The notes below the pieces were generated by a model that did not search any database, was not told the DNA's origin, and saw only the letters and a list, made by a program, of their open reading frames with translations. From assembly GCA_015134335.1 (NCBI GenBank), contig CP043975.1, forward strand, positions 84,350 to 148,349: a DNA stretch of 64,000 nt. The letters run 5' to 3'. This document shows positions 1 through 64,000 of this stretch, piece by piece. Numbering within the stretch: position 1 is the stretch's first letter; the number at the start of each line of letters is the position of its first letter. Origin of the DNA: Candidatus Stammera capleta (lineage in GTDB: Bacteria > Pseudomonadota > Gammaproteobacteria > Enterobacterales > Enterobacteriaceae). The translations under genes and the position numbers were made by a program.

Positions 1-286
1 ATCCAAAATATTTAAGATTATTTAAATCATCATATAAATATATTTTATTAGTATAATTCCTTTTAATACTATTTAATAAATTATTTTTATCCATACCTAT
101 TCCATTATCTATGAGCTTAATCAAACTAATACCTTTATTTATAAAATATAATTTAATTAAATTTGATTTAGCATCTAAACTATTTTCTAATAATTCTTTA
201 ATTATATGAAATAATTTTCATAAAGATTCTCCTTGAGATAATTTATTAATAGTATCTTCAGGTAATAATTTTATTTTATTATACAT
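1..286 (-). CDS. mutL: DNA mismatch repair protein MutL, N-terminal part (gene continues beyond the left edge)
   Basis: ATG at 284-286 on the minus strand. Translation is MYNKIKLLPEDTINKLSQGESLW(TGA)KLFHIIKELLENSLDAKS...LIDNGIGM. This carries the GHKL ATPase motifs of MutL (ELxENSxDA, DNGxGM). Confidence 0.85.
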
Positions 287-614
287 AATATGTTATAAAT
301 AAATTTATTTAAAAATTAATTATCAATTTTTTTTTTTAAAAACTTAATTTTAAATATATTATAATAAATTTAAAATTAAAAATATAAAAATTTTTATTTA
401 TATTTTAAAAAAATATTATAATTATAAATTTTAAATTTTAATATTATTTATGTAAACTTTACTATATTAAAAAAATTTTTATATTTACAATTTATAATAA
501 AATAACAAAAACAAATTTTATAATTTTTATGTTATTAATTATAATTAATATATAATTAAATAATTTTAAAACAAATTTTTTAAATATTTATTATTTATTA
601 TTTATAATATAAAA

Positions 615-687
615 AGCGGAAAACGAGATTCGAACTCGCAACCATAACCTTGGCAAGGTTATACTCTACCAATTGAGCTATTTCCGC
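615..687 (-). tRNA. tRNA-Gly (anticodon GCC)
   Basis: The reverse complement GCGGAAATAGCTCAATTGGTAGAGTATAACCTTGCCAAGGTTATGGTTGCGAGTTCGAATCTCGTTTTCCGCT aligns along its length with E. coli tRNA-Gly(GCC). Anticodon loop is TTGCCAA. No encoded CCA. Confidence 0.9.
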
Positions 688-695
688 AATATTAA

Positions 696-1253
696 TTATT
701 TATAATTAATTAAAAAACTTTTATAATATTTTAATTCTAAAACAGATTGTTTAATATCATATAAAGCACTATGTTTAAATTTTTTTTTTTTAAAAAAATT
801 ATTAAAATTAGGAATTCATCTATTAAATAACTCTTTTAAAGAACTAACATCTATGTATCTATAATGAAAAAAATCTTCTAATCTAGGCATATATTTAAAT
901 AAAAATCTTCTGTCTTGAGATACTGTATTACCACATATAGGTGAAGATTTATATTTAACTCATTTTTGTAAAAATTGTAATGTTAAAGTTTCTGCATAAC
1001 ATTCATTTATTACACTATTATGTACCAATTTTAATAAACCACTTCTATTATGAACTTTCAAACATCAAGAATTCATTTTAGATAAATGCTTTTTCTTTTG
1101 TTTAATTACTAAATTTGGTCCTATATCTAAAATAGATAAATTATTATCTGTTATTAATGTTGCTATCTCTATAATTCTATGAATTTTAGGATTTAAACCT
1201 GTCATTTCTAAATCAATTCATATTAAATTATTTTTATAATTTACTACATTCAT
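696..1253 (-). CDS. orn: oligoribonuclease
   Basis: 185-aa ORF under the UGA=Trp code: [22 protein letters not shown]...[11 protein letters not shown]...[13 protein letters not shown]...[11 protein letters not shown]. These are the DEDDh exonuclease motifs of Orn. Stop is TAA at 696-698. Confidence 0.88.
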
Positions 1254-1277
1254 ATAAAAATTTTTATTTTTTAAAAC

Positions 1278-1351
1278 CGGTACGAACGGGACTCGAACCC
1301 GTGACCCCCAGCGTGACAGGCTGGTATTCTAACCAACTGAACTATCGCACC
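1278..1351 (-). tRNA. tRNA-Asp (anticodon GTC)
   Basis: The reverse complement GGTGCGATAGTTCAGTTGGTTAGAATACCAGCCTGTCACGCTGGGGGTCACGGGTTCGAGTCCCGTTCGTACCG is close to E. coli tRNA-Asp. It lies directly downstream of 5S, as in E. coli rrnC/rrnH. Confidence 0.92.
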
Positions 1352-1376
1352 TAAATTTATTAATTATTAAAATTAC

Positions 1377-1496
1377 ATACCTGGCGATTACTTACTCTCA
1401 CATAAGAAAAACTTATACTACCATCAGCGCCATAATATTTCACTTCTGAGTTCGGAATGGTATCAGGTGGTTCCATTACGCTATTGTCGCCAGATA
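1377..1496 (-). rRNA. rrf: 5S ribosomal RNA
   Basis: The reverse complement contains CTGGCGAC...CCACCTGATACCATTCCGAACTCAGAAGTGAAA...GCGCTGATGGTAGT...GAGAGTAAGTAATCGCCAGGTA, collinear with E. coli 5S. Confidence 0.9.
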
Positions 1497-4652: not shown

Positions 4653-6290
<1,638 letters not shown>

Positions 6291-6492
6291 ACAAACTGAC
6301 TATACTTAAAAATTAGATATTCTTAAATATATGTAATTTAAAATATATCTACAAAAAATTATTTATTGTAAAGAACAAATTAATTATTAATTCAATAATT
6401 AATAATTAATTATTAAATACGTTTATCTAATATATCAACAAACTAACTATAATACAAGCAATATTTATATTTTTTTTAAAAAAAATTTATTA

Positions 6493-7192: not shown

Positions 7193-7223
7193 ATTTAATA
7201 AACCTTTATATAACAAAATTACT

Positions 7224-7574
7224 CTATTTATTTAATAAATTTAAACTTAATTTATTTATTTTTTTATTCATAATAGAAGAATTTAATATTATATTTTCTT
7301 TCTTCAAAATTATAAATCTTAAAATACTATCATTTAATTTAAAATTTTTTTCTATATCATTTATATAAATTTTATTAATTTCTATATTCATTAATATATA
7401 ATGAGCTTTATAAACATTTTTAATACTATAAGATAAATATTTTAATCCTCAATCTTCTAACCTATGTATTTTACCTTCTTTTTTATTTATAAAATTAGTA
7501 TAATAACTAACTATATTTTTAATATACATAGTTTTATCCGGATAAACTAAATATACAATTTCATAATTACGCAT
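7224..7574 (-). CDS. rpsF: 30S ribosomal protein S6
   Basis: [15 protein letters not shown]...[10 protein letters not shown](TGA)[23 protein letters not shown], compared with E. coli MRHYEIVFMVHPDQS...[20 protein letters not shown] stop at 7224-7226. There is no priB between rpsF and rpsR. Confidence 0.9.
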
Positions 7575-7729: not shown

Positions 7730-10153
7730 TTAATATTTATTTAACAAATTAAAATTTTTTTTAAATTTTTTAAATAATATTAATGATGTTTTAATAATTA
7801 TTTTTGGTAATCCAGTTTTTTTAGCAACATAAAAAGAACAACTATTATTACAATAACCCTCTTTGATTTTATATAAAAAAATAATATTATTATTTACTTT
7901 TATATAATTAAAATAAATTTTTTTTATATTTTTATATAAATTTCCTATATTCAAAATTTCAAAAAAATGAGTTGAAAACAAAGTTATACATTTTATATAT
8001 TTAGATATATAATTTAAACAAGACCAAGATAAGGCCATACCTTCATAAAAAGATGTACCACGACCCATTTCATCAATTAATATTAAACTATTTTTAGTTG
8101 CATTATTTATAATATAAGAAATTTCAGACATCTCAACCATAAAAGTTGATTTATTATCCATAATATCATCAGAAAATCCTATTCTGGTCAAAATTTTATC
8201 TATAATTCCAATATAAGCTTTAGTAACAGGTAAATAACTACCTATGCAACCCATTATACAAATAATAGCTATTTGCCTCATATACGTACTTTTACCTCCC
8301 ATATTAGGACCTGTTATAAACAAAGTTCTAACAAATTTATTATCGATAAAAAAATCATTACTAATAAATTTATCATCCAAATAATTTTCTAAAACAGGAT
8401 GACGACTATCTTTAAAATAAATATAAGAATATTTTTTAAATTTAGGCTTTTTATAATTATAATGAATAGCTATATAAACAAAACTAGACAAAACATCTAA
8501 TTTAGCTAAATATTTAGATATAATTTGTAAATCTACAATATAAAAAATAATTTTTTTTATAATTTTATTAAAAATTTTACTTTCTAATATTATTATTTTT
8601 TTTCTATTATAAAGAACTTTAATTTCAAATTCTTTTAATTCAGTAAAAAAAAATCTTATATGATTTTTTAAAGATTTAATTTTTATATAATGACTAGGTA
8701 TTAAATTAAAATCTTTTTTATTAATTTGTATATAATAACCATCTAATTTACTATAAATAATATGTAAATTTGATATATTATATTTTATTTTTTCAGAATT
8801 TTCTATATTAGAAATATATTTATAAACACTATTATCAAATTTCCTTAAATTATCTAATTTTTTACTATAACCTTTTTTAATTATAAAATTATTATCTAAG
8901 CTTTTTTCTTCTATAGAAGAACTTATTAAAAAAATAATCTTTTTTAAAATATTATATTTTTTATATAAAAAAAGAAATATATTATGTCTATTTATAGAAT
9001 TTTTTTTTTTATTAAATAATTTAATAATATTCAATATAGATTTTAAAAATATATTTAATTTTAATAAATCTTTAAATACTGCATTTTTTAAACAAATACG
9101 ACCTAAAACACGCTCTAAATCACCTATTTTTCTTAAAAAAAACCTTAACTCATCATTTCATAACCAAATAATATTCATTATAAAATGCCTATCTTTTAGT
9201 TTAATAAAATCAAAAATAGGATTTATAATTCATCTTCGTAACAAACGACTACCCATTGGGGTTAACGTTTTATCTAAAAAATATAATAAAGAATTTTTTT
9301 TATTATTATATAAAGAACTAATCAATTCTAAATTAGATATTGTATTAAAATCAATAAATATATACTTATTTTTTTTATTATATTTTATTAAATTAATATG
9401 TTTAAAATTAACTAATTGAGTAAATTTAATATACTTTAACAAACATCCAGCTGGAATAATTCCCATATTGTTAAAGCTAATATTAAAAATATTTAAATTA
9501 GAAACCTTAAAATGATTTAATAAAATTTTTAAAGATTTATTATACGAAAAATATTTTATAGAAATTTTATTATAAAATATATTTTTATTTTTTATTAATA
9601 ATATATTAAAATTTTTATTTGAATAAAGAACTTCCTTAGGATTCGTTTTAAAAATTTCACTCTTTAAATCATTTACATTTTTAAATTTAAATAAATTAAA
9701 CTTACCACTAAAAATATCTATTACAGAATAATAATAAATATTATTATATAAATAAATACAACTTATTAAATTATCATATTTCTTACCTATATAATAACTT
9801 TCAGAAATAGTACCTGGAGTAATTATTTTAAAAACTTTTCTTTTCTTTAAAGAAAGATCTTTATTTTTAAGACTATTATTAACTTGATTACAAATAACAA
9901 CAGATTCACCTAATTTAATTAATTTTAAAATATATCTTTTACTGCTTTTTAAAGGAAGACCTGCCATAGGCACATTTTTTTGTTTAACAAACTTTTTAAA
10001 AGTTAATTTTAAATTCAATAAATTAGATATCTTTATAGCATCATCATAAAATAATTCATAAAAATCTCCTATTTGATAAAACAATAATATCTTTTTATAT
10101 CTTTTTTTAATATTTAAATATTGTTTAATTATAGGACTCAAATATATAGACAT
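7730..10153 (-). CDS. mutS: DNA mismatch repair protein MutS (intact under UGA=Trp)
   Basis: Track ORFs 9230..10153 and 7730..9034 are one frame joined through TGA codons at 9230-9232 (LDKTLTPMGSRLLRRW) and 9158-9160. Walker A is GPNMGGKST, followed by DEMGRGTS. 807 aa. Confidence 0.92.
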
Positions 10154-14682: not shown

Positions 14683-15291
14683 ATAAAAAAAAAATGAATT
14701 CATTACATTCGTAATGATAAATATAAAAAATTATCTATTAAATATAATTTAAAATCTAGGTCTTGATTTAAAATATTTGAAATAGATAAAAAATATAAAA
14801 TTTTTAAAAAAAATAACAATATAATAGATTTAGGGTCTTCACCAGGCGGATGATCTAAATATTGTATTACTAAAATAAAACCTAAAGGTAAAATTTTTTG
14901 CTGTGATATAATTCCAATGCAAAAAATATATAATACATTTTTTATAAAAGGTAATATTAATAAAATTAAAATATTAAATATAATAATAAAAAAAACAAAT
15001 AAATTAATTATAAATAATATTATTTCAGATATATCACCAAACATAACTGGAATTTATGAAACAGATTATTATAATCAAAAAAAAATAATAAATAATATAT
15101 TATGATTATGTAAAAAAAAACTTATTAATAAAGGAAATTTAATTATAAAAATATTTTTAGGAAAATTGTTTAATAAAATATTAAAAAAAATAAAAAATAT
15201 ATTTAATTATATTAAAATTTTCAAACCACAATCTTCAAATTTCTTTTCTAAAGAAATATATATAATAGCTAAAAATTATAATAAAACTTAA
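14683..15291 (+). CDS. rlmE: 23S rRNA U2552 2'-O-methyltransferase RlmE/FtsJ (start codon uncertain)
   Basis: ...KKKW IHYIRNDKYKKLSIKYNLKSRSW FKIFEIDKKYKIF...IIDLGSSPGGW(TGA 14851-14853)SKY...DISPNITG...KIF.G..F, collinear with E. coli RlmE. It lies upstream of ftsH as in E. coli. There is no in-frame ATG: either ATA at 14683 initiates, or the ATG at 14679 is used after a 1-nt loss in the A10 run. Confidence 0.8.
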
Positions 15292-15311: not shown

Positions 15312-17076
15312 ATGAAAAACATTAAATTAATTTTTTGAATAATAGTTACATTAATATTATTATATATAATTAACCTTAATATTTATGAACATCCTTATAT
15401 TAATGAAATTAATTATTCTAATTTTTTAATGGATTTAAAAAATAATATTATTAAAAGAATAAGAATTAATAATAAAGAATTAAATATAATAACTAATTAT
15501 GATTATGCATATAAAGTATATATGCCCTTTAAAGATACTAGCTTAATTAATAAATTAATTAAAAAAAATATATTAATAGAAACTAACAATAATAATAATC
15601 ATAATTTTTTAATATCATTAATTATTTCATGATCTCCGATTTTATGTACATTAATTATAATAATATTATTAATAAAATACATTATTAATAATAATTTAAC
15701 ATTATTCAATAATAATAAAGCACAAAAATATAATAAAAATTTTAAAATAAATTTTAAACAAATAGCAGGATGCGAAGAAGTTAAAAATGAAATAACTGAT
15801 ATTATAGAATATTTAAAAAAACCTAAAAAATTTAAAAAATTAGGAGCTAAAATTCCTAAAGGAATATTAATGATAGGTCCTCCTGGAACAGGAAAAACAT
15901 TATTAGCTAAAGCAATAGCCAGGCGAAGCTAAAGTTCCTTTTTTTAATATTTCAGGATCAGATTTTGTTGAAATATTTGTAGGAGTTGGAGCAGCAAGAA
16001 TGAGAGCAATGTTTCAAAAAGCTAAACAATTAGCTCCAAGTATAATATTTATAGATGAAATAGATGCTGTTGGAAAAAAACGATCATCTCATCAATTACA
16101 AAGTAATGATGAAAGAGAACAAACTCTTAATCAAATGTTAGTAGAAATGGATGGTTTTAATAGTCAAAAAACAGTTATAGTTATTGGAGCAACAAATAGA
16201 CCTGAAGTTTTAGACAAAGCTCTACTTAGACCAGGTAGATTCGATAGAAAAATAATAATAAATTTACCAGATTTAAAAGGCCGTTATAAAATACTAAAAA
16301 TACATATAAAAAATATTCCTGTTAAAAAAAATATTGATATTAAAACAATAGCAAAAAGTACTTCTGGATTTTCTGGTGCAGATTTAGCTAATTTAATTAA
16401 TGAAGCAGCATTATTAGCAGCAAAAAAAAATCTTAAAAAAATTACTAATAAAGAATTAGAAAGCTCTAAAGATAAAATAATAATGGGAGCTTCTAGAAAA
16501 TCATTAATAATGAATCAACAACAAAAAGAATTAACAGCATATCATGAATCAGGGCACGCTATTGTAAGTATAATGGTACCATATCATGATCCTATACATA
16601 AAATAACTATTATTCCTCATGGTCAATCATTAGGTACAACTATGTTTTTACCTAAAAATGACAATATACTATTAAAAAAAACATTATTAGAAAGCAAAAT
16701 TTCTGCATTATATGGAGGAAGAATAGCTGAAGAAATAATATACGGATTTGAAAACATTTCTATAGGAGCTAGCAATGACATTAAAATAGCTACATATTTA
16801 GCTCAAAAAATGATAACTAAATGAGGTTTTTCTAAAAAAATAGCACCATTAATATATAATAAAAATATTTTAAATAATAAATATATATATTCAGAATATA
16901 TTAATAAAATAATTGATAAAGAAATACAATATTTAATAAAAAAAAATTATAAAATAGCTAAAAAAATATTAACTAAAAATATCAATTTGTTACATAAAAT
17001 GAAAAAAAAATTAATAAAATATGAAACATTAAACAAAAAACAAATATTTAATTTAATTAAAAAATATTCAATATAA
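15312..17076 (+). CDS. ftsH: ATP-dependent zinc metalloprotease FtsH, interrupted by a +1 frameshift at about 15920/15921
   Basis: Frame 0 (15312-15929) encodes the TM segments and Walker A ([15 protein letters not shown]), then AGG CGA AGC TAA. Frame +1 from 15922 encodes [31 protein letters not shown]...[11 protein letters not shown]...[10 protein letters not shown]...HESGHAIV...W GFS..., ending at TAA 17074-17076. Confidence 0.85.
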
Positions 17077-17492: not shown

Positions 17493-17581
17493 GCCGGGGT
17501 GGTGAAATAGGTAAACACGCTACTTTGAGGAAGTAGTTTCTAATAAAAAATGAATTACGGGTTCAAATCCCGTTCCCGGTA
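17493..17581 (+). tRNA. tRNA-Leu (anticodon GAG), long variable arm
   Basis: GCCGGGGTGGTGAAATAGGTAAACACGCTACTTTGAGGAAGTAG...ACGGGTTCAAATCCCGTTCCCGGTA aligns with E. coli leuU. Anticodon loop is TTGAGGA. Confidence 0.88.
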
Positions 17582-17736
17582 ATAATAAAAATTATATTTT
17601 ATTAATTTTATTTAAAAATTATTAAATTATAATTAAATATTTACAAATTTAATAAAAATTTTTATTAATTTAAATAAATAAAAATATTTTATATAATATA
17701 AAAATTTTTATAAAAAAATAATTTATAATTTTTAAT

Positions 17737-21607: not shown

Positions 21608-22318
21608 ATGCAAAAATTAGTTATTATAAGACATGGAACTAGTGTTTGAAATATTAAAAATATATTTACTGGATGAATAGATATTAAATTATCTAAAAAA
21701 GGAATTAAAGAAGCAAAAAAAGCAGGAAAACTATTTAATAAATATAAATTTAATTTTGATATAACATATACCTCTTTTCTTAAAAGAGCTATACATACAG
21801 CATGATATATACTATGTAAATTAAATTTAATATGAACTCCAATTATTAAAACATGAAAATTAAATGAACGACATTATGGAGCTTTACAGGGTAAAAATAA
21901 AAACGAAATTTTACTAAAATATGGAGAAAAACAATTCATTAAATGAAGAAGAAGTTATACAACTAAACCCCCTTTAATAAAAAAAATAGATAAAAATTAT
22001 ACAGAAAATGAATTTAAATATAAAAATTTAATATCAATTCCTTTAGGTGAAAGTTTATTAGATACATATAATAGAGTAATACCATATTGGAAAAAAATAA
22101 TATATAAAAACATTTTAAAAAATAAATGTATACTTATAGTTGCTCATGGTAATTCATTAAGAGCTTTAATAAAATATATTGAACAAATATCAGATAATAA
22201 TATTATAAAACACGAAATTCCTACCGCAACACCATATATATATGAATATAATATACCTAATATTTATTACAAAAATAATTATTTAATTAATATAAAAAAA
22301 AAATATTATCTAAAATAA
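21608..22318 (+). CDS. gpmA: 2,3-bisphosphoglycerate-dependent phosphoglycerate mutase
   Basis: [29 protein letters not shown]...[11 protein letters not shown]...[13 protein letters not shown]...[12 protein letters not shown], collinear with E. coli GpmA. It has seven TGA=Trp codons plus one TGG (22088-22090), so it is absent from the standard-code track. Confidence 0.9.
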
Positions 22319-23192: not shown

Positions 23193-23600
23193 ATGAATAA
23201 AAAAAAAATTATATATAACAAATATATTAAAAAACACTATATTATTAAACAAAAATTTAAAACAGGAATTGTCCTTAAAGGATGAGAAGTTAAATCTATA
23301 TTTATTAATAATATAGATATTAAAAACAGTTACATAAAAATAAATAAAAAAAAAGAAATATATTTAATTAACTCTAATATTTTTAATAATTTTAAAAACA
23401 AAAAAAGACATATTAAACTTTTACTTAAAAAAAAAGAAATTAAATATTTATATAATAAATCTTTAAACAAAGGTTATACAATAATGTTATTATCTATAAT
23501 TATTAAAAAACCATGATATAAATGTATAATTGCTTTATGCAAAGGATTAAAATTATACAATAAAAAAGATAAAATAAAATATAAAACATGAAATATATAA
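23193..23600 (+). CDS. smpB: SsrA-binding protein SmpB
   Basis: ...KFKTGIVLKGW(TGA 23283-23285)EVKSI...HIKLLLKKKEIKYL...KGYTIMLLSII...PW YKCIIALCKG. Followed by ssrA as in E. coli. Confidence 0.88.
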
Positions 23601-27994: not shown

Positions 27995-28013
27995 ATATAT
28001 ATATAAATTTATA

Positions 28014-29684
<1,671 letters not shown>

Positions 29685-34834: not shown

Positions 34835-35176
34835 TTTATTATATTAATTTTAATATTTTTATTATATTAATTATTATAAATATATTTTTAAAATAATTTA
34901 TTTAATTTAATTTATATTAAATAAATTAACATTATATATATTTATATTATCTTATATATTTTAATTAATTAAACTATTTAATTAACTTAATACTTTATAT
35001 ATTATTATTGAGCTATTACTTCCAAAAAATTACATACAACACATTAATTTTATTAGTTTACTAGATAAATTATTATAAATCAATATTAAATTTTAAATTA
35101 TAAAAAAATTTTAAATATAATATTGATTATTAAAATTAAATATTTTATAATTACAAATTATTATAATATTATTGAA

Positions 35177-37075: not shown

Positions 37076-37169
37076 TTTATTTGTATAATTTTATATATAG
37101 TATTAATTATATATTTAAATTACCAATATATATAATTAATATTAAAAAAATAGTTATTAGGATAAAAAA

Positions 37170-43967: not shown

Positions 43968-44038
43968 GCGAATATATTATAAAGGTATTATATTAGCCTT
44001 CCAAGCTAATAATGTGGGTTCGAGTCCCACTATTCGCT
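43968..44038 (+). tRNA. tRNA-Gly (anticodon TCC)
   Basis: GCGAATATATTATAAAGGTATTATATTAGCCTTCCAAGCTAATAATGTGGGTTCGAGTCCCACTATTCGCT aligns with E. coli glyT. Confidence 0.88.
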
Positions 44039-46618
44039 TTTTATATTTATATATATATTATTTTTAATATTAATTATATTTTTAAATTTATTTAATTTTT
44101 TTATAATTTTAAATTTTATTTTTTTTATATAATAAATTTTTAATAAATATATATTTTTCTTAATAATTTTTTTTTCAGTTTTTGATAAATTTATAATTAT
44201 TAATTTTTTTATATTATTAATTTTATTTTTTTTTAAAATTTTTATTATATTTTTTATTATATTAAATATATATATTGTTTTTTTGTTTTTATATTTTGAA
44301 TAATTTATATATTTTATAATTTTATAGCTTAATATAGATGGTTTTTTTTTGTTAAAAATATTATTTATGAAAATAATTTTTTTTCATATATATTCTGTTA
44401 AAAAAGGAATAATAGGATGATTTATTAAAATAATATTTATGAAAACAATTTTTAATATTATTAAATTATTAATACTTATATATTTACTTTTTTTATATTT
44501 AAAAATTTTTTTAAACAATTCAATAAACCAATTACAAAAAATAGTAATTAAAAATTTTTGTATTTTTATACATAGTTTTTGAAATTTAAAATTTTTAATT
44601 AATTTTTTATATTGTTTAAGTAATTTATTAAATTTATATAATATTCAATAATTTATTAAGTTTTTTTTTATATATTTATAATTAAAATTTATAATATTTT
44701 TTATATTATAATTTAAATTTTTATTATTTTTAAAAAATTTTATTATAAATTTAGATATATTTAATAGTTTATTACAAAAATTATAACTATTTTTTAAAAA
44801 TTGAAAATTAAAATTAATTTTTAGTTTGTTTGATGAAATATTATATAATGTATATCTTAAAATATCTGTTCCATAAGCGGGTATTCCATTAGGAAAATAT
44901 TTTTTAGTATTATTAATAATTTTTTTTTTTAAATTATTTTTAATTAAATATTTAGTTCTTTTAATTATTAAATTTTTTAAACTTATGCCATATATTATAT
45001 CTTTAGGTGTAATTATATTTCCTGTTGATTTAGACATTTTATTGCCATTTTCATCAGTTATTAATCCTGTTATTAATACTTTTTTAAAAGGTATTAAATT
45101 GTAGGATTTATTTAATAATAATGGTGTTATTATTATCATTCGTGCTATTCAAAAATAAATTATATCAAACCCACTTACTATTAAATTTATAGGATGAAAT
45201 TTATGTGAAAAATTTTTAGGTCATCCTAAACTAGTTAAAGTCCATATTGATGATGAAAACCATGTATCTAAAATATTAATATCTTGTTTTAAATAAATAT
45301 TTTTATTTAAGTTATATTTTTTAATGATATGTTTTTTATTATATCCTAAATATATTTTTTTAAATTTATCATATCAAATAGGTATTTTATGACCTCAACA
45401 AATTTGTCTTGATATACATCAATCTTGAATATTTTTAATTCAAGAAAATAATAAATTTTTATATTTATTAGGTATAAAAATTATTTTTTTATATTTAATA
45501 TATTTAAAACAATTTTTAGTTAATGATTTCATTTTTAAAAATCATTGTTTAGTAAGTATTTTTATAATTTTTGTATTAGTTTTTGTACTGTAAGAAACAG
45601 GTTTAATTATTTTAATTGTTTTATAAATATATTTATTATTTATTAAAAATTTTATAATTTGTTTTTTATTTTTATATATATTTTTAATATTATTTTTAAT
45701 TTTTATACATTTATAATTTAATATATTAATTTTTTTTTTTAAATTACCATTTTTTTTTAAAATATTTATAATGTTAATTTTTTTTTTTTTAGCTTTTTTA
45801 AAATGTGAAATTTTATGACCAGGAGTTAAATTAATATAATATTTTATATTTTTTTTTTTTTTTAAAATTATAGGTAATTTTATATTATTTATAGGATTTA
45901 TAATAAATTTATATTTTTTAATAGTTTTATCATTTGTTAAAATTGCTGTATTAGATAATAAAAGTTCAGGTTTAGTAGTAGGAATAATAATATATTTATT
46001 TTTAGTATTATATAATTTATATTTAATAAAATATTGTTTAACTTTTTTTTTTTTTTTATATATTTCTATATCAGATAAAACAGTTTTAATTTTTACATCT
46101 CAATTAATTATTTTATAATCTTGATAAATTAATTTTTTTTTATATAGAATAATAAATGCTTTTTTAACTGCTTTAGAATAATTTTTATCTAATGTAAATT
46201 TTTTACTTTTTCAAAATATACTATTACCTAATAATTTTGTTTCTTTATATATTTTATATTCATATTTATATTTTCATTTTCATAATTCTTTTATTAATTT
46301 TTTTTTATCATATATTTTATATTTTTTTTTTAAATAATTTTCCACAATTATTTGAGTAGATATACCTGCATGATCTATTCCAGTTAGTCAAATAGTATTA
46401 AATCCTGACATTTTTTTATATCTAATAATTAAATCCATTATAGCTTGTTGATAAGCATGTCCTAAATGTAAATTACCTGTAATATTAGGAGGTGGCATTA
46501 TAATAGAGAAATTTTTTTTATGTTTAATATTTTTGTTATTTGGATTAAATAATTTATTTTTAAGTCAAAATTTATAAATATTTTTTTCTTTTATTAAAAT
46601 ATTTAAAATATTTTTCAT
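44030..46618 (-). CDS. valS: valyl-tRNA synthetase
   Basis: 862-aa frame under UGA=Trp from the ATG at 46616-46618: ...PPPNITGNLHLGHA...W DVKIKTVLSDIE...TTKPELLL...IQDW CISRQICW GHKIPIW Y...LDTWFSS...VSGFDIIYFW IARMI...GNKMSKSTGN...FPNGIPAYGTDILR...NHPIIPFLTEYIW. The TAG stop at 44030-44032 lies inside the tRNA-Gly(TCC) gene on the other strand. Confidence 0.92.
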
Positions 46619-46624
46619 TTTTTT

Positions 46625-48076
46625 TTATTTATTTTTTTTAATATATTTAGTAATAAATTTAATAATTAAATAAACAGTTCTTCCTGTTGCTCCATTTTTA
46701 TTTCATGCTGTACCAGCAATATCAATATGAGCTCATTTATATTTTTCAGTAAAAAAATTTAAAAAACAAGCAGAAGTAATTGTACCAGCATAATTAGAAT
46801 TACTACAATTTTTAATATCTGCAATATTAGATTGTAAATATTTATTATATTTTTTATATAGTGGTAATTGTCATATTATATCTTTAGTTTTTTTTCCAGA
46901 TTTTATTAATTTTTTAGCTAATTTATTATTATTACTAATTAATCCACTTATATTATTACCTAATGCTATTAAACATGCTCCTGTTAAAGTTGCTATTGTT
47001 ATTACTGTGGAAGGGTTATATTTTTTTATATATGTTAAAGTATCGCATAATACTAATCTTCCTTCAGCATCTGTATTAATAATTTCTATTGTTTTTCCAG
47101 ATAAAGATTTAATTACATCTCCGGGTCTAGTTGAATTATGATTAATCATATTTTCTGCACAACATAAAATTCCAATAATATTTAATTTAAGTTTTAATTT
47201 ATTAATAATATACATAATTCCTCATACTACAGCAGCTCCAGACATATCGTATTTCATTTCATGCATATTTAATGATGATTTTATTGATAAACCTCCTGAA
47301 TCGAATGTTAATCCTTTTCCTATTAATATTAATGGTTTTTTATTTTTATTATTATTATATTTAATTTTTATCATTTTAATTTCATTGGATGAAGCTTTAT
47401 TAACTGATAAATATGCGTTCATACTCAATTTTTTCATTTTTTTTTCATTTAAATAAGATATTTTAGTGTTTTTTCCTATTATATATTTGTATGTTTTATT
47501 AAGAATATAATTAGAATTACATATATTTGGAGGTGTGTTACATAAATTTTTAGTTTTGTTAATACCACTAGATATAATTTTACTATTATTAATTATTTTT
47601 TTATATTTTAAAATATTTATTTTATCTGTTTCAAAATATATATTTTTATTTAAAATTTTTTTTTTTTTAGTTTTAAATGTTAAATATTTATATATTAAAT
47701 TTTCAGTTATATGAATAATATTAAATAATTTTCAATTTAATTTTTTATCATTTAAATTGTTTATTAAAAAAATTATGTTTTTATATTTTTTTTTTTTTAT
47801 TATTTTTAAAGATTTAGTAATTAAAATTTTTAAAATATTATATTTTAATTTTTTTTTATTATATTCAATTAAAAATATATCTTGGTTTTTATTTATATTA
47901 GATTTAATTTTATGTATATTATATTTTTTTTTAATAAATTTATATTTATTAATTTGTTCATTAATAATATTATTGTATATATTAGTAGGATTATTATATT
48001 TTTTATTTACAAATATAATTGTACATTGATATTTATTATAGTTATTATTAAAATTTGTTTCTATTTTATATTTCAT
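46625..48076 (-). CDS. pepA: leucyl aminopeptidase PepA
   Basis: Three track ORFs (47732..48076, 47222..47437, 46871..47215) share one frame joined by TGA codons. Contains ...LCNTPPNICN...GKGLTFDSGGLSIK...MKYDMSGAAVVW G...NTDAEGRLVLCD...ATLTGAC...KW AHIDIAGTAW. TAA at 46625-46627, 6 nt before the valS ATG. Confidence 0.92.
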
Positions 48077-48769: not shown

Positions 48770-48843
48770 CAGGGGCAGAAGGAATTGAACCCTCAACCTA
48801 TGGTTTTGGAGACCACTGTTCTACCTAATTAAACTATGCCCCT
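48770..48843 (-). tRNA. tRNA-Trp with unchanged CCA anticodon
   Basis: The reverse complement AGGGGCATAGTTTAATTAGGTAGAACAGTGGTCTCCAAAACCATAGGTTGAGGGTTCAATTCCTTCTGCCCCTG aligns with E. coli tRNA-Trp. Anticodon loop is CTCCAAA, discriminator is G73, and the D stem is GTTT/GAAC (U11:A24). Confidence 0.9.
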
Positions 48844-50872: not shown

Positions 50873-52192
50873 TTATTTTTTTATATTTAAAATAATATTT
50901 CATCAATTATTTTTAGAAGGTTTTGCTTTTTTAGTAATGAATATATTAGGGCATAATATAGGAATTTTGTTATAAAAAATTATTGGAGTTAATTTTCTTT
51001 TTCATGGGAATATTTTATATTTTTGTCAAATATTTTTAATTTTTTGAGTTTTTTTATATAAAAGTTTAATTTTAAATTTATTTTTAATATTAAATTTTAT
51101 ATAAATATTTTCTTTTTTTGTTGGTTTACGAACTCTATTAAAATTTATATATTTTTTGTTTTTGTCTGTATTAGTATATAATACTCCTATGTCGTTAGGT
51201 AATTTAATAGTATTATTATTTTTATTTCATTTAATAGTTTTAATTTTTAATATTTTAAATTTTTTTTCTAAATATAAATTATTTTTATATTTTATAATTA
51301 TAAAATGTTTTAAATGTAATTGAAAATAATTTTTATTTTTATTTGTTTTTAATTTTTTTAATATTAAATATATTAATTTATATGAAATATAATTTTGATT
51401 ATTAATTTTAATAAATTTTCTTAATATTATTATTATTTCTTCATTTTGTAATTTATATATATTATTTAAATTTAAATATTTGTTTTTAATATATAAATTT
51501 ATTTTTTTTTTTATAAGTTTATTAATTAATTTATATTGATTATGACATATTTTTGAGTTACGATTTAAAGAACTATAAAAATATTTTCATCTTTTAACAA
51601 TTAAAGGTAATATTTTATGTCTTAAAAAATTTCTATCTAATTTTAAATTTAAATTACTATTATCTTCTATTCATTTTATATTATATTTAATAGCATTATT
51701 AATAATATATTTTTTATTTATATTAATAAATGGTCTTTTAATAATAAATTTTTTATTAAATATAGTTGTTTCTTTTATACCTATTAATCCTTTTAAACCT
51801 GTTCCTCTTTTTAACATTAAAAAAATAGTTTCTATTTTATCATTTAAATGATGAGCTAATAATAAAATTTCATTTTTTTTTATATTTTTAAAGTATATTT
51901 TTAATCTTTTTTTTCGTAATTTATTTTCTAAATTATTTATATTTTTTATATAAATATTTTTTATAATTAAAGGTATTTTAAGTTGTTTGCAAAATAATTT
52001 ACAGTGATTTTGTCATATTAAAGAATCTTTATGTATATTATGATTTATATGTATAGCTCTAATATTATTATTAATTTTGTATTTGTTTATATTATAAAGT
52101 AAAATAGTAGAATCTATTCCTCCGCTATAACCTATTAAAATATTATTATATTTATTTATAATTTTTTTTATTTTTTTTTTAATTAAATTCAT
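50873..52192 (-). CDS. tilS: tRNA(Ile)-lysidine synthetase TilS
   Basis: I translated all 439 codons by hand. The frame is uninterrupted under UGA=Trp: MNLIKKKIKKIINKYNNILIGYSGGIDSTILLYN... (PP-loop SGGxDS) ...HHLNDK...LDRNFLRHKILPLIVKRW. TAA at 50873-50875. It is invisible in the standard-code track. Confidence 0.88.
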
Positions 52193-54160: not shown

Positions 54161-54508
54161 ATGAAAAAAAAATTATTAGAAGTTAATGAAAGTATTTTTG
54201 AAAAAAAAGTTTTAAAAAAAAAAGGATATTGTTTAGTAGATTTTTGAGCTAAATGATGTGGTCCTTGTAGGTTGTTTATAACTATTTTAAATGAATTATA
54301 TAATAATAAAAATTTTTATAAAAAAATTAAATTATTTAAAATAGATATAGATAAAAATAATTTATTAGTTAATAAATATAATATACAAAGCGTTCCTACA
54401 ATAATTTTATTTAAAAATGGTAATTTATTATCTAAAAAAACAGGTTTATTAACTAAATTAGATATATTAAATTTTTTAAAATTAAATGGATTAGATATAT
54501 TAATATAA
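54161..54508 (+). CDS. trxA: thioredoxin 1
   Basis: ...CLVDFW AKW CGPCR... (WCGPC with both Trp as TGA) ...IQSVPTIILFKNG. A GGAG Shine-Dalgarno sequence is present. It lies upstream of rho as in E. coli. Confidence 0.9.
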
Positions 54509-54566: not shown

Positions 54567-55829
54567 ATGAATTTTACTTACTTAAAAAGTATTTCAGTAA
54601 CTGAGCTTATTAATATAGGTAAAAATATAGGATTAGAAAATTTATCTCGTATGCGTAAACAGGATATAATATTTTCTATATTAAAACAACATTCTAAATG
54701 TGGAGAGGATATTTTTGGAAGCGGTGTGTTAGAAATATTACAAGATGGATTTGGGTTTTTACGTTCTTCTAATAGTTCATATTTAGCTGGGCCTGATGAT
54801 ATATATGTTTCACCAAGTCAAATACGTAGATTTCATTTAAGAACAGGTGATACTGTTTCAGGTAAAATACGCCCCCCTAAAGAAATAGAAAGATATTTTT
54901 CTTTATTAAAGGTTAATTTTATAAATTATGATAAACCAGAAAATTTTCTTAATAAAATATTATTTGAAAATTTAACTCCATTACACGCTAATTATAGATT
55001 ATATATGGAAATTGGAAATGGAAGTAATGATGATATTACTGCTAGAGTATTAGATTTATGCGCTCCAATAGGAATGGGGCAGAGAGGTTTAATAGTAGCT
55101 CCTCCTAAAGCAGGTAAAACAATTTTATTGCAAAATATAGCTAAAAGTATTAACTGTAATTATCCTGATTGTATATTAATGGTATTATTAATTGATGAAC
55201 GTCCTGAAGAAGTTACTGAAATGCAACGTTTAGTAAAAGATGGTGAAGTAATATCATCTACATTTGATGAGCCTGCTTCACGTCATGTACAAGTTTCTGA
55301 AATGGTTATTGAAAAAGCTAAAAGATTAGTAGAACATAGAAAAGATGTAATTATTTTATTAGATTCTATAACTAGATTAGCTCGTGCTTATAATATAGTA
55401 GTTCCAGCATCTGGTAAAATTTTAACTGGGGGTATAGATGCTAATGCTCTACATAGACCTAAAAGATTTTTTGGAGCTGCTAGAAATATAGAAGAAGGTG
55501 GTAGCTTAACTATTATAGCTACTGCTTTAATAGATACAGGTTCTAAAATGGATGAAGTAATTTATGAAGAATTTAAAGGTACTGGAAACATGGAATTACA
55601 TTTATCTAGAAAAATTGCAGAGAAAAGAATTTTTCCAGCTATAGATTATAATAGATCTGGTACTAGAAAAGAGGAGTTATTAACATCTAATAATGAATTA
55701 AAAAAAATATGAATTTTAAGAAGAATTATTCAACCTATGAATGAAATAGATTCTATGGATTTTTTAATTAAAAAATTATTAATGACCAAAACAAATAATG
55801 AATTTTTTGAAATGATGAAAAGAACATAA
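54567..55829 (+). CDS. rho: transcription termination factor Rho
   Basis: ...[12 protein letters not shown]...[27 protein letters not shown]...[15 protein letters not shown]...[13 protein letters not shown]...RLARAYN..., extended through TGA 55710-55712 (KKIW ILRRII) to ...[11 protein letters not shown] at 55827-55829. Confidence 0.95.
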
Positions 55830-56109: not shown

Positions 56110-57750
56110 ATGAAACATATATTGGTTACATGTGCTTTACCGTATGCTAATGGTTCTATACATTTAGGTCATATTTTAGAACATATACAAGCTGATATTT
56201 GAGTAAAATTTAATAAAATGTTAGGTAATAAAGTTTATTTTATATGTGCTGATGATTCTCATGGTACAGCTGTATATTTAAAAGCGAAATCTTTACAAAT
56301 TAATCCTAAAAATATGATAAAAAATATTTTAGTTGAACATATTAATCAATTTATTAATTTTAATATTTTTCATAATTATTATTCAACAACTCATAGTAAA
56401 TATAATTATATTTTTCTAAAAAAATTTATTAATCGATGTCAAAAAAAGAATATTTTATATACTAAGAGTGTATTACAATTTTATGATAATACTAAAAAAA
56501 TATTTTTACCTGATAGATATATTGAAGGTACATGTCCTATTTGTAATAGTATTAATCAATATGGAGATAGTTGTTTTATTTGTGGTTCTATTTATAATAG
56601 TATAGATTTAATTAATCCAATTTCTAGATTATCATCAACTATTCCTAATTTAATGTATTCTGATCATTTGTTTATAAATTTAAATATTTTTAAAAATAAT
56701 TTAATTTATTGAATTAATGAATATAATTTAAATAAAAATGTTTTAAATCAATTATTAATATGGTTAAAAAATGATTTAATAGATTGAAATATATCTAGAG
56801 ATTTTCCTTATTTTGGTTTTAAAATACCTTCAAAATATATATATAATAAATATTTTTATGTATGATGTGATGCTTTATTAGGTTATATAAGTACTTTCTA
56901 TAAATATTGTAAATATAAAAAAAGTATTAATTTATTTTCAAATTTTTGAGATATTAATTCTAATTATGAGTTATATCATTTTATAGGTAAAGATATATTA
57001 TATTTTCATGGTATATTATGACCAATAATATTAAATATTTTAAATTATCGTCAACCTACTGGTTTAGTTGTACATGGACATATAATGATTAATGGAATTA
57101 AAATGTCTAAATCTTTAAATAATTATATAAATACTAATAATTGATTACAGTATTTTGATGCTGATAGTTTAAGATATTATTTAGCAAGTTTATTAAATAA
57201 TAGTATAAAAGATATAAATATTTCATTAAATGATTTAGTTAATAAAATAAATTCTGATATAGTTAATAAATTTATTAATATAGCTTCTCGTATATCTGGA
57301 TTTTTATATAAATATTTTAATAATATATTATCTAAGTTATTGTGAGATGATAATATATATAATTATTTTGTTAATAAGTCTATTATTATATATAATTTAT
57401 ATTTAAAATTTAATTATAATAAAATTATTATAGAAATTAATTTATTATTAGATATTATTAATAAATATATTAATGATCATAGTCCATGAATATTAAATAC
57501 TATTGGCAGTAAATTAAAAAATATTAATAATTTACATATGTTTTGTACTACTATAATTAATATTTTTAAAGTTTTATCAATATATTTAAATCCAATAATT
57601 CCTAATATTATTAGTAAAGTTAAAATTTTTTTAAATATAAAAAAATTATCATGAAATGATTTATATAAACCATTATTAAATCATAAAATTAAAAAGTATA
57701 TTAATATTTATAATCGTTTAAATATTTTAAATATAAATAAAATTTTATAA
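56110..57750 (+). CDS. metG: methionyl-tRNA synthetase (core enzyme, no C-terminal tRNA-binding appendage)
   Basis: [31 protein letters not shown]..., zinc knuckle CPICNS...CFICG, ...W DISRD-like [12 protein letters not shown]..., KMSKS at 57100-57114. 546 aa in one frame through many TGA codons. Confidence 0.92.
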
Positions 57751-58029: not shown

Positions 58030-59232
58030 ATGAAAATTTATTTAGTTGGCGGTTATGTAAGAGATAATTTGTTGGGATTAAAATCTATAAGTGATAAAGA
58101 TTGATTAGTAGTAGGAAGCTCTTATAGTAAAATGTTAAAATTAGGTTATAAGCCTGTAGGTAATTTTTTTCCTGTTTTCTTACATCCTATTACTAAAGAA
58201 GAATATGCATTAGCTAGAAAAGAATATAAAAATGGTTTAGGTTATAAAGGTTTTAATTGTGTTTTTGATAAAAGTATTTCTTTAGAAGAAGATTTATATA
58301 GAAGAGATTTAACGATTAATGCTATAGCAATGGATAAAAAAGGTAAATATTATGATCCTTATAATGGTTTAGAAGATATAAAAAACAGAATTATTAAACA
58401 TGTATCTAATTTTTTTAGTGATGATCCATTAAGATTAATTAGAGTTGCTCGTTTTAAAGCTTATTTATTTAATTTAAATTTTTATATACATAAAGATACT
58501 TATTTTTTAATGAAAAATATTGTTTTAAAAGGTGAATTATTATATATTTCTCCAGAAAGAATTTGAATAGAATTAAGAAAAGTATTAATTTTGAATAAAA
58601 ATATTTATATTTTTTTTAAAGTATTAAAAAGTTGTAATGCTTTATATATTATATATCCAGAATTAAATAATATATTTAATAGTAATATATTAAAATATTT
58701 TTTTAAGTTAATTTTTAGTAAATTAGAATTTTATAATTATGGTTATAATTTAAATTTTATTTTTTTGTTTTTTTTTTTTCATTATACATTTTTATATAAG
58801 AGTTTTTATGATAAAAAAAAATTTATTATTAATAGTATTAAAAATTTTTATAAAAAATTTAATTTACCTAAAAAATTATTTTTGTTATGTAAAAAAAGTT
58901 ATTATTTAATATATGAAATTTATATGTATAAAAAAAACATTGATATATCTATTTTTATATTGAATATTTTTTATAAAATTGATATTTGAAGAGATAATAA
59001 TTTTATTATTATAGTTTTAAAAATTATTAAAATTTTAAAATTAATTAATATTTATGATTTTTTTATATTAAATATTTTAGAAAAATATATATTAAAGGTT
59101 TTTACTAAAATTAATAAGATTAATTTTAAAAAATTATTAAAGATAAAAAATTTTAAAAATTTTGTAGATATTAAAAATTATATATATAATTTACGTTTGA
59201 GAAAAATAAAAAATATATTTTGTAATATATAA
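58030..59232 (+). CDS. cca: tRNA nucleotidyltransferase (CCA-adding enzyme), HD phosphohydrolase motifs not recognisable
   Basis: MKIYLVGGYVRDNLLGLKSISDKDW LVVG...VGNFFPVFLHPITKEEYALARKE...LYRRDLTINAIAMD...DPLRLIRVARF...ISPERIW, collinear with the E. coli Cca head domain. The C-terminal half is degenerate. Confidence 0.88.
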
Positions 59233-60257: not shown

Positions 60258-60338
60258 ATTTATTTTTTTAAATATATTAATTATAATATATTATAATAAT
60301 TATTAATTTAGTTCAAATATAATTTAAAGGTATATATT

Positions 60339-60545
60339 ATGCCGTTTATTAAAATAAAAGAAAATGAACCATTTGATATAGCTTTGAGAAGATTTAAAAG
60401 AGTATGTGAGAAATCTGGTATTTTGTCTGAAGTACGTAAAAGAGAATTTTATGAAAAACCAACTACAGCTAGAAAAAAAGCTAAAGCTTCAGCAATTAAA
60501 AGAAGAATTAAAAAAAATATTCGTGATAAAATTAATAGATATTAA
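60339..60545 (+). CDS. rpsU: 30S ribosomal protein S21
   Basis: [52 protein letters not shown]. Confidence 0.95.
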
Positions 60546-60563
60546 ATAATATATATATTTAAT

Positions 60564-62315
60564 ATGAGATATATTTCAAAATTATTTATAAAAAAATTAT
60601 TGTATAATACAAATATTATAGATATAATTTCTTCTAAAATAAATTTAAAGAAAAATGGTAAATATTATCAATCTATTTGTCCTTTTCATAATGAAAAAAA
60701 TCCATCTTTTATTGTTAATGAAGATAAGAAATTTTTTTATTGTTTTGGTTGTAAAATATATGGAAATATAATAGATTTTTTAATGAAATTTAATAATTAT
60801 AATTTTTTAGATGCTATAAAAGAGTTAGCAAATATTAGTAATTCAGAAATAGTTTATTCTAATATTAAAACTAATATAAAAGATATAGATGAAAGAAATA
60901 TATTTTTTCAATTAATGGCATTATTAAATTCGTTTTATAAAAAATCTTTATTAAAGAATTTTAGTAAAATTAAATATTTTTTTAAAATTCGTAATATTAA
61001 TTATAAATTGATAAAATATTTTTCTTTAGGTTATTCAGATAAAAATAGTTTTAATAAATTTATACAGTATTTAGATGTATATAAAAAAGATTTTTTATTT
61101 AAATTGGGAGTTTTAAAAAAAAATAAATATAATAATTATTATGATATTTTAGATAAAAGAATTACATTTCCTATATATAATATATATGGAAATATAATAG
61201 CTTTTGGTGCAAGAATAATTTATTTAAATAATTATAATAATAAATATATAAATATTTCAAATAATATATATTTTAATAAAAAGAAATGTTTATATAATTT
61301 ATTTAATTTAATACAATATTATAAAAAAAATAATATTAAAATATCTGAAATATTAATTGTTGAAGGTTATTTAGATGTTATTTTATTATTTAAATATGAG
61401 ATAATTAGTATAGGGTTGTTAGGTACAAATATATCTATTTATCAAATTAATATATTATATAAATATACAAATAAATTAATATTTTGTTTAGATGGTGATA
61501 AAGCTGGTTATAAAGCTGTTAAAAATATAGTTAAATTATTATTAAATTTTATAAATTCTATTAAAATATGTTTTTTTGTTTTTTTGCCTTCTGGAGAGGA
61601 TCCAGACTCTTTAATACAAAAAGAAGGTAAAATTTTATTTAGAAATAGAATTAAAAATGCATTATCAATTTGAGATGTATTATTTAGTAAATATATGGGT
61701 TTTAAGAATAATTTATTATCATATTTTGATAAAATATCTTTTTTAAATTTTATACTTCCTTTAGTAAAAAATATTAAATGTCCAATAACTAAATCATTTA
61801 TTAGACAATCTATAAGTAATAAAGTAGGAATTATTAATAATGATTTTTTAGAAAAATATTTATATATTAGAAAAAAATCTCCTATACTAAAATTTAGTAT
61901 TATTCGATGTTTAATAAGTTTAGTATTAAAATTTCCATTTTTATCTTATAAAGTTAATATATATAGTATTTTTTTTAAAGATTATAAAATAGTTCCAGGT
62001 TTATTATTGTTTTTAGATATAATAAATTTGTGTATTAGTAATAAAAATATTTCTAGTAATGAAATTTTAAATAAATATAATAATAAAAATAATATTAGAT
62101 TTTTGTTAATAAAATTATTATATTGAAATTTTTTTCCTAAAAATGTTAATTTTTCATTATTATTTGATGATAATTTAAAAAAATTAAAATATTTAATAAT
62201 TAATATAAAACTAAAAAATATGTTTTTTAAAAAAAATATAAATGAATTATCTTTAGTTGATAAAATTAAAGTATGAAATTTTATTAAAATGAAGAAATTA
62301 AATTTAAATTTATAA
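60564..62315 (+). CDS. dnaG: DNA primase
   Basis: Zinc finger CPFHNEKNPSFIVNEDKKFFYCFGC and TOPRIM domain (VEGYLDV...CLDGDKAG...PSGEDPDS). Track ORFs 60564..61673 and 61695..62126 are in one frame joined by TGA. TAA at 62313-62315. Confidence 0.9.
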
Positions 62316-62397
62316 TTTATATTTATTTTTTTTAATATTTATTAAAATCATAAAAATTTTTATATTTAAACAAAATAATTAATATATAAATAAATAT

Positions 62398-64000
62398 ATG
62401 AAAAAAAATATTATGTTACAAATAAATTTATTAATTTCTGAATATAAAGATCAAGGATATATTACTTATTCTCAAATTAATAAAAAATTATTTTTATTAG
62501 ATGAAAAAATTAATATTTCTCAATATGAAAAAATCATAAATATGATAACTAATTTAGGTATTTCTGTTATTGATAAATCCTCCCCCAATATTAAATTTGG
62601 TTCAAATAGTAATTTATATTCTATAAATAATAATTTGTTTAAGATTAATAATAATGATTATAATAAAATAAATGATCCTGTTAGGATGTATATGAAAGAA
62701 ATGGGAACAGTTGATTTATTAACACGAGAAGGAGAAATTGTTATATCTAAAAGAATTGAAGATAATATAAATTATATACAATATAATTTAGCTAAATTTT
62801 TTAAAAATATAAAATATTTTTTAGATCAATATAATTTAATAAAATTAAAAAAAAGTAAATTGTCTGATTTAATTCTTGGTTATATAGATGATAAATATAA
62901 TTATATTTTTAATAATAATAGATATAATTTAAATTATTTTTATAATATTAAATATATAGATAATAATAATAGTAATAATGATACTATTAAAAGTAAATTT
63001 AAATTTTTAAAATATCAATATAAAATTTTAATAAAATTTATTAATTTATATAGTTTTAATCATCCATATACTAAATATGAATTTAATAAATTATTAAATA
63101 TTTTTATGACATTTAAATTAGTTCCTAAAGTTTTAGATAATTTATTATTTAATATAAAAAAAATTTTTATAAAGATTAAAAATATAGAAAATAATATAAT
63201 GAATTTATGTATTAATAATTTAATGCCTAAGAATATATTTTTAAAATTAATATTAAATTATAAGTTGAGTGAATATAAGTGATTTTATAAAGCTGTTAAT
63301 ATGAATAAATTATGATCTGTTAATCTTATAAAAATAAAATATAAAATATTTAAAAAAATTAAAATTTTATTTATAATTGAAAAAGAAATAGGAATTGATT
63401 TAATTAAATTTAAAAAAATTATTAAAAATATATTTGAAAGTGAATTAAAAACTAAAAGTGTTAAAAAAGAAATGGTAGAAGCTAATTTAAGATTGGTAAT
63501 ATCTATAGCAAAAAAATATACTAATAGAGGTTTACAATTTTTAGATTTGATTCAAGAGGGAAATATAGGTTTAATGAAAGCTGTTGATAAATTTGAATAT
63601 AGAAGGGGATATAAATTTTCTACATATGCAACTTGATGAATAAGACAAGCTATAACTAGATCAATAGCTGATCAAGCTAGAACCATTAGAATACCTGTTC
63701 ATATGATAGAAACTATTAATAAGTTAAATAGAATATCTAGACAGTTATTACAGGAAATTGGTAGAGAACCTACTCCTGAAGAGCTTTCACTTAAAATGAT
63801 GATTCCAGAAGATAAAATACGTAAAGTTTTAAAAATTGCTAAAGAACCTGTTTCTATGGAAACTCCAATTGGAGAAGATGAAGATTTACATTTAGGTGAT
63901 TTTATAGAGGATACTTCAGTTAAATTACCTTTAGAAAGTGCTACTACTGAAAGTTTAAAGTTAGTTACTAATAATATTTTATCTAGTTTAACTCCTAGAG
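62398..64000 (+). CDS. rpoD: RNA polymerase sigma factor RpoD (3' end beyond the window)
   Basis: ...[22 protein letters not shown]...[78 protein letters not shown]... The invariant region-2.3 WW is TGA TGA at 63634-63639. Confidence 0.95.

Follow-up and report, generated by a model that had tools for sequence, protein, structure and literature searches.

UGA as a tryptophan codon in a 64-kb piece of the Candidatus Stammera capleta chromosome

Introduction

Candidatus Stammera capleta is the extracellular, pectin-digesting symbiont of Cassidinae tortoise leaf beetles. The subject of this report is a stretch of 64 kb of DNA, hereafter the window, and the use of the UGA codon in its genes. With a probability of about 0.93 the window stems from the chromosome of a Ca. 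Stammera capleta strain that uses translation table 4 (code 4), in which UGA encodes tryptophan (Trp, W); the standard code is referred to below as table 11 or code 11. In outline, the window is:

1..64000: about one quarter of the ~260-kb Ca. Stammera capleta chromosome, with about 55 protein genes, one ribosomal RNA (rrn) operon, 16 tRNAs and tmRNA; translation table 4

Salem et al. 2017, a study cited in PMC10540940, PMC13462651 and the gTranslate preprint, described the reassignment of UGA to Trp for Ca. Stammera capleta, and Stammera is counted among the four classical endosymbiont lineages with this change (PMC10540940). The reference Stammera lacks prfB, the gene for release factor 2 (RF2), has a trnW with the anticodon CCA, a G+C content of 15.4% and UGA in 159 of 255 coding sequences (CDS; 62%) (PMC10540940 Table 2). 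In a set of 49 Stammera genomes tRNA-Trp(CCA) is present, tRNA-Trp(UCA) occurs in none (0/49) and UAA makes up 88-97% of the stops (PMC13462651, 2026, Table 2); the G+C content ranges from 13.9 to 20.4% (PMC13462651). Five basal Stammera genomes keep code 11 together with prfB, and the core genes of the species were defined at identity thresholds of 50-60% (gTranslate preprint 2026). Already known are the code reassignment, the absence of a UCA tRNA, the loss of prfB from most strains and also the basal lineage with code 11. An earlier note on this DNA (the original prediction) had proposed an independent, or at least rarely documented, occurrence in Enterobacterales and had named Mollicutes, Hodgkinia, Zinderia and Nasuia as the lineages with UGA-to-Trp. 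That list leaves out Stammera, the source of the window itself, and because UGA-to-Trp is already published for Stammera the window is not an independent or undocumented origin. Ca. Providencia siddallii PSAC is a second published case in the order.

The window resembles code-4 Ca. Stammera capleta in its genome of about 0.26 Mb, a G+C content of 18% that lies within the species range, the gene order of CP024013.1, UGA as Trp in about two thirds of the genes, about 94% TAA stops and a tRNA-Trp with the anticodon CCA only, placed beside tRNA-Ile(GAU). It differs from other Stammera in a protein identity of 52-65% and in a frameshift in ftsH of its own. The basal code-11 Stammera belong to the same genus-level clade, show synteny with the window and carry a tRNA-Trp(CCA) with A at position 24 (A24), but they are free of in-frame TGA, have TGG in place of the window's TGA codons and reportedly keep prfB.

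More distant systems share parts of this picture. Ca. Zinderia insecticola (Betaproteobacteria) reads UGA as Trp, has lost prfB, shows extreme A+T bias and has tRNA-Trp(CCA) without a UCA counterpart (PMC10540940, PMC13092985). It belongs to another class, however, and its 4-bp anticodon stem has been proposed as the decoding solution, whereas the tRNA-Trp(CCA) of Stammera has a stem of 5 bp (PMC13092985, 2026), as does that of the window. In Ca. Hodgkinia cicadicola, in Ca. Nasuia deltocephalinicola and in Mycoplasmatales the reading of UGA as Trp and the loss of RF2 are likewise combined (PMC10540940, PMC13462651), but these lineages have the cognate tRNA-Trp(UCA), while the window and all Stammera loci have CCA. 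PSAC (Morganellaceae, Enterobacterales) keeps trnW(CCA) and reads UGA as Trp; it represents an early stage, with UGA in about 20% of CDS, a UGA-containing prfB still present and some genes apparently terminated by UGA (PMC10540940), whereas in the window the reassignment is complete.

TGA codons and E. coli tryptophan

The reference for the codon comparison consists of 18 Escherichia coli K-12 regions holding orthologues, to which window segments running from one TAA or TAG stop to the next were aligned by tblastn, the best-scoring frame being kept for each place. Translated as W, TGA meets an E. coli W at 95 of its 108 in-frame occurrences and no other residue more than twice, at an overall identity of 44%. 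Because reading TGA as W could bias the alignment toward W-W pairs, the comparison was also made with TGA masked as X. The masked codons still fall on E. coli W in 88 of 107 cases, against a chance expectation of about 1 in 107, W being 0.95% of the aligned E. coli residues. Identity to E. coli stays level downstream of every TGA.

The alignments cover 150 Trp positions of E. coli, of which the window has 88 as TGA and 6 as TGG; the remainder is substituted, mostly by TTA and TAT. Positions that are still Trp-coded thus use TGA in about 93% of cases (88/94) and TGG in the other 6/94. TGG is scarce yet in use, with seven aligned codons, six of them on E. coli W. The original prediction had placed TGA at conserved Trp positions beside a residual use of TGG, and both statements hold; its coordinates for rpoD, mutS, rlmE, smpB, rho and gpmA are all correct on re-reading. 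The codons concerned include the following:

rpoD, 63634-63639, plus strand: tandem TGA TGA (YATWWIRQ) at the two Trp of E. coli sigma-70 region 2; all four TGA of rpoD on W
valS, 44030..46618, minus strand: 15 in-frame TGA and 3 TGG, 18/18 on E. coli Trp
metG, 56110..57750, plus strand: 10 in-frame TGA, 9 of them opposite E. coli W; one TGG, also on W
gpmA, 21608..22318, plus strand: 6 TGA and 1 TGG (22088-22090), all on E. coli W; longest table-11 piece 13 aa
tilS, 50873..52192, minus strand: 8 TGA, of which 6 in the aligned part, 6/6 on E. coli W; a TGA TGA pair 10 codons ahead of the TAA
trxA, 54161..54508, plus strand: both Trp of the active-site motif WAKWCGPC are TGA
rho, 55710..55712, plus strand: single TGA on Trp (KKIWILR); Rho is 84% identical to E. 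coli
mutS, 9230..9232, minus strand: TGA in LLRRW
rlmE, 14851..14853, plus strand: TGA in PGGW
smpB, 23283..23285, plus strand: TGA in KGWEVKS

The terminators complement this pattern. All 53 traceable genes end in TAA (50 genes) or TAG (3 genes) within a few codons past the end of homology; in none of the 53 does a TGA stand where the E. coli protein ends, and no gene needs a TGA stop. With table 4, 78% of the window lies in open reading frames (ORFs) of 100 aa or longer, vs 53% with table 11, and ORFs of 400 aa or longer number 18 vs 7. TGA is contained in 35 of the 53 gene segments, so that about two thirds of them are broken under table 11. The genes gpmA, tilS, smpB, orn, cutA, hspQ and rpsF leave no table-11 piece of 60 aa or more. 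That stops are never TGA, that standard-code ORFs break most genes and that the first six of these seven are missed altogether had been noticed before and is borne out by the counts. Stammera sequence needs annotation with table 4; table 11 fragments about two thirds of the genes of the window and misses several entirely.

Code-4 and code-11 strains of Stammera

The masked-TGA analysis was repeated on 15 Stammera loci and one Buchnera locus. Twelve of the 15 Stammera loci resemble the window, each with 21-57 in-frame TGA of which 72-95% fall on E. coli W, and with 0-7 TGG. In the other three (CP144774.1, CP144777.1 and CP144771.1, genomes of about 312 kb) in-frame TGA is absent and 44-45 TGG stand on W; the Buchnera control likewise has no in-frame TGA and 34 TGG on W. 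When loci are compared codon by codon, the TGA codons of the window stand opposite TGA in 11 other code-4 Stammera loci (26-50 codons per locus) and opposite TGG in the three code-11 loci (37-41 codons each). Within the code-4 strains TGG and TGA are occasionally swapped. The published split of Stammera into code-4 and code-11 strains is independently reproduced by these comparisons.

The tRNA-Trp and the decoding of UGA

A single gene in the window is available for the decoding of Trp codons:

trpT, 48770..48843, minus strand: tRNA-Trp, the sole one in the window, anticodon CCA and not UCA (ARAGORN; Rfam tRNA model 67.4 bits)

The gene lies beside tRNA-Ile(GAU) and has the anticodon CCA in 14/14 Stammera loci. 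No tRNA of any identity with a UCA anticodon is found in the 64-kb window; among genomes with table 4 a cognate tRNA-Trp(UCA) is frequent, though not general. For the alignment the window gene and nine Stammera genes were set against E. coli K-12 trpT, and all 14 Stammera genes were compared for sequence features. Every Stammera tRNA-Trp has A at position 24, forming a U11-A24 pair, where E. coli trpT has G24 (U11.G24). The anticodon stem of the window tRNA-Trp consists of five pairs, two of which only are G-C. At the top of this stem the 27:43 pair is G.U; the other strains have A-U or U-A at that place, and E. coli has C-G. The 3′ CCA is not encoded in the tRNA-Trp genes of the window and the Stammera loci. 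The gene for the CCA-adding enzyme, cca, is kept in the window (58030-59232, plus strand); its N-terminal 216 residues alone align with E. coli Cca.

The exchange G24A is cited as aiding UGA readthrough by tRNA-Trp(CCA) (PMC13092985). It is the change carried by the Hirsh UGA suppressor of E. coli, which has the anticodon CCA and the U11-A24 pair in common with the Stammera tRNA and reads UGA via a third-position mismatch. The Hirsh suppressor, however, is a laboratory mutant whose suppression is only partial and in competition with RF2, whereas A24 is the wild-type state in Stammera and is found in standard-code strains too. The Stammera passages of the published work consulted hold no mention of A24 in tRNA-Trp, and the supplements of PMC13092985 are without Stammera tRNA details. 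The A24 state, as a candidate explanation of decoding without a UCA anticodon, would be the one mildly new angle here.

The reassignment can be pictured in three steps. Extreme A+T mutation pressure together with the disuse of UGA as a stop would have let RF2 be lost. UGA would then have been captured by the single tRNA-Trp(CCA) through near-cognate reading, with a C34-A mismatch at the third position, and G-to-A mutation pressure would have turned most TGG into TGA. Judged from the tRNA sequence, A24 and the weak, A/U-rich anticodon stem would favour such a reading of UGA. These features would be permissive at most and not the trigger, because the basal code-11 strains have both. For the same reason the Hirsh-like state of the tRNA would be older than the reassignment. 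It may be, although we regard this as rather doubtful, that the Stammera tRNA-Trp(CCA) is a natural Hirsh-type suppressor whose state predates the reassignment, and that loss of RF2 alone was enough to flip the code. A search of the 64-kb window, which is about 25% of the genome, with E. coli RF2 by tblastn gave no match for prfB (best E = 5.7). Code-4 and code-11 strains with near-identical tRNA-Trp genes form a good natural system for the mechanism of decoding with a CCA anticodon.

Several observations weigh against this account of UGA as a Trp codon. Depending on whether TGA is translated or masked, 13-19 in-frame TGA are left without an E. coli W opposite them; they stand at poorly conserved positions. 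prfB is retained in 15 of 49 Stammera assemblies (PMC13462651 Table 2). A24 is also present in three code-11 Stammera loci and hence is not specific to the reassigned strains. Of 3,438 tRNA-Trp(CCA) genes with a 4-bp anticodon stem, 2,414 carry A9C and/or G24A (PMC13092985), a count which suggests that A24 is common among tRNA-Trp(CCA) genes. Since code-11 strains have A24 too and A24 seems common, it is not sufficient alone. A following A favours readthrough of UGA by tRNA-Trp in E. coli (PMC10540940), but the base 3′ of TGA in the window is A in 52% of cases vs a background of 50%, and selection for a readthrough-favouring context after UGA was rejected.

The alternative that survives best accepts table 4 but would have UGA read by a tRNA-Trp whose C34 has become a U-like base through editing or modification, or by an unrecognised or imported tRNA. 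The C34 of tRNA-Trp is edited in trypanosomatid mitochondria. With about 93% of Trp codons being UGA and yet no cognate UCA tRNA, efficient decoding is demanded, and near-cognate reading is normally inefficient in E. coli. On the other side, we know of no bacterial enzyme that edits C34 of tRNA-Trp. PMC13092985 cites or shows the reading of UGA in E. coli by variants of tRNA-Trp(CCA) with G24A, A9C or a 4-bp stem, and Zinderia too has a CCA tRNA only. An edited or additional tRNA is therefore unlikely, and near-cognate reading by tRNA-Trp(CCA) itself is preferred.

Place of the window within Stammera and Enterobacterales

The proteins of the window tie it to Stammera. A 260,485-bp contig from NCBI encodes a protein that is 100% identical to the whole of its GroEL, and one that is 100% identical to the C-terminal fragment of its FtsH. 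GroEL is 87-94% identical to about 35 proteins from genomes of Stammera size (240-325 kb), among them that of CP024013.1; outside Stammera the identity is at most 86%, and here Enterobacteriaceae symbionts of Donaciinae beetles come first, ahead of Lonsdalea, Dasytiphilus and Buchnera. In a PepA scan of species-representative genomes the best matches were 14 contigs with Ca. Stammera capleta in their titles, and the nearest PepA is that of CP144782.1 (74% identity). Over more than 20 kb the gene order of the window is that of CP024013.1 (Ca. Stammera capleta, 271,175 bp), namely atp-mnmG-exo-ompA-like-ptsHI-cutA-groSL-rpsO-pnp-deaD-smpB-grpE-gpmA-truB-rbfA-infB-nusA, and the tRNA clusters ileT-trpT and alaT-thrT-tyrT-glyT are also the same in the window and the Stammera loci. 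The NCBI lineage of Ca. Stammera is Enterobacterales, Enterobacteriaceae. The relatives of GroEL and PepA, the gene order of CP024013.1 and this lineage confirm an Enterobacterales-derived symbiont, which is what the original prediction had seen in the window and which agrees with its micro-synteny with E. coli.

One could argue for a separate, novel origin of UGA-to-Trp, in an Enterobacterales symbiont outside Stammera, from the amino-acid identity between window proteins and the 14 other Stammera loci, which is just 52-65%, and from an exact 16S 35-mer that is unmatched among the contigs of species-representative genomes. However, an identity as low as this, 52-65%, is seen among all 14 loci named S. 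capleta, and the core-gene thresholds of the gTranslate preprint are themselves 50-60%. The contig with the identical GroEL and FtsH fragment lies within the Stammera series, the synteny with CP024013.1 and the ileT-trpT arrangement (14/14 loci) point the same way, and TGA positions are common to the window and other code-4 Stammera. An origin outside Stammera is thus very improbable, and the window is best read as part of the code-4 lineage of Ca. Stammera capleta, seemingly from a genome that is already on deposit.

In-frame TGA as stops or as another amino acid

The in-frame TGA could also be real stops, either in a decaying, pseudogene-rich genome or through G-to-A sequencing errors in TGG. 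The genome is indeed extremely reduced and A+T-rich, and ftsH does have a strain-specific frameshift. Yet the placement of masked TGA on conserved Trp is non-random, homology persists at unchanged identity past every TGA, and the roughly two thirds of genes that carry TGA include rpoD, rho, valS, metG, nusA and trxA, the first five of which are essential in E. coli. Moreover, 11 Stammera genomes, assembled independently, have TGA at these codons, and three others have TGG. The masked-TGA test and the codon-by-codon comparison therefore exclude pseudogenes and sequencing errors, and the chance that true stops are involved is negligible.

Equally negligible is a reassignment of UGA to cysteine, to selenocysteine or, as in table 25, to glycine: Gracilibacteria and Absconditabacteria do read UGA as Gly, and UGA encodes selenocysteine in many bacteria, but the residues opposite TGA are W 95 times, G once and C never, with at most two of any other, and the window holds no tRNA with a UCA anticodon that could serve such a residue. 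In addition, Stammera genomes lack both tRNA-SeC and selB (PMC13462651 Table 2). Tryptophan thus remains the reading of UGA in the window.

In ftsH (15312-17076, plus strand) a frameshift of one base near 15,920 (junction about 15,903-15,925) divides the gene, in the sequence GCA ATA GCC AGG CGA AGC TAA. FtsH is intact, at 574-609 aa, in the other Stammera-sized genomes listed, and the call made for the window's own genome is a C-terminal piece of 358 aa. This points to a strain-specific pseudogene or an assembly error and not to a conserved recoding. GCC AGG C resembles frameshift sites at a rare ('hungry') codon. A programmed frameshift was nevertheless rejected, AGG being used 29 times in the aligned genes and FtsH being intact in the other genomes just mentioned.

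Gene content and gene order

The G+C content is 18.3% over the 64-kb window and 13-20% in protein-coding stretches; the rrn operon alone is richer. With TAA and TAG as the only stops, about 55 housekeeping genes span 88% of the window. Micro-synteny with E. coli K-12 is seen at no fewer than eight loci. The order rplU-rpmA-obgE-rlmE-ftsH-secG-leuU-nusA-infB-rbfA-truB is kept as in the E. coli operons, and further E. coli-like fragments are rpsF-rpsR-rplI, rplM-rpsI, mnmG-atpBEFHAGDC, valS-pepA, trxA-rho, tsaD/rpsU-dnaG-rpoD, orn-tRNA-Gly(GCC) and cutA near tRNA-Phe. The rrn operon lies on the minus strand and comprises 16S, tRNA-Glu, 23S, 5S and tRNA-Asp, the same arrangement as in E. coli rrnC.

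Single genes have dropped out of several of these fragments:

7216-7224, between rpsF and rpsR: priB missing, the E. coli operon otherwise collinear
17581-17737, upstream of nusA: rimP missing
37075-37170, between mnmG and atpB: rsmG and atpI missing
46618-46625, between valS and pepA: holC missing, the stretch otherwise collinear with E. coli
54508-54567, between trxA and rho: rhoL missing

A minimum of the cumulative GC skew coincides with a switch in gene orientation at about 34,717-35,122, in the spacer between the 5′-3′ exonuclease gene and mnmG. In E. coli, mnmG is a neighbour of oriC, and the spacer is probably the replication origin. No DnaA boxes are found in this mnmG-side spacer; matches to a relaxed consensus number 4 in the whole window vs 6.7 expected.

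No genes for polygalacturonase or rhamnogalacturonan lyase, the pectinolytic enzymes behind the hallmark function of Stammera, were recognised among the ORFs of the window, about one quarter of the genome, no dedicated test having been made. A short ORF at 111-302 (plus strand) with two TGA is without a homologue among the fetched E. coli regions, and a stop-free extension upstream of rpsO (27998-28051) runs over the end of groEL. Neither is likely to be coding; an ORF definition that permits TGA in A+T-rich sequence has probably produced both.

Some of the retained genes depart from their E. coli counterparts in length or domain content. The OmpA-like protein (32872-33906, plus strand) matches E. 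coli OmpA in the N-terminal beta-barrel alone, at about 30% identity over 178 aa, while its C-terminal 135 residues are rich in Lys, Asn and Ile and of undetectable homology. infB (18800-20503, plus strand) encodes an IF2 of 567 aa. Of the 890 aa of E. coli IF2 only the C-terminal ~510 align with it, and in place of the N-terminal domains it has a short Lys/Asn-rich stretch. The 16S rRNA gene (4653-6292, minus strand) measures 1,640 nt vs a model of 1,533 positions, and the excess is mostly one insertion of about 170 nt in the 5′ domain, at about 5,985-6,100, which is almost only A/T.

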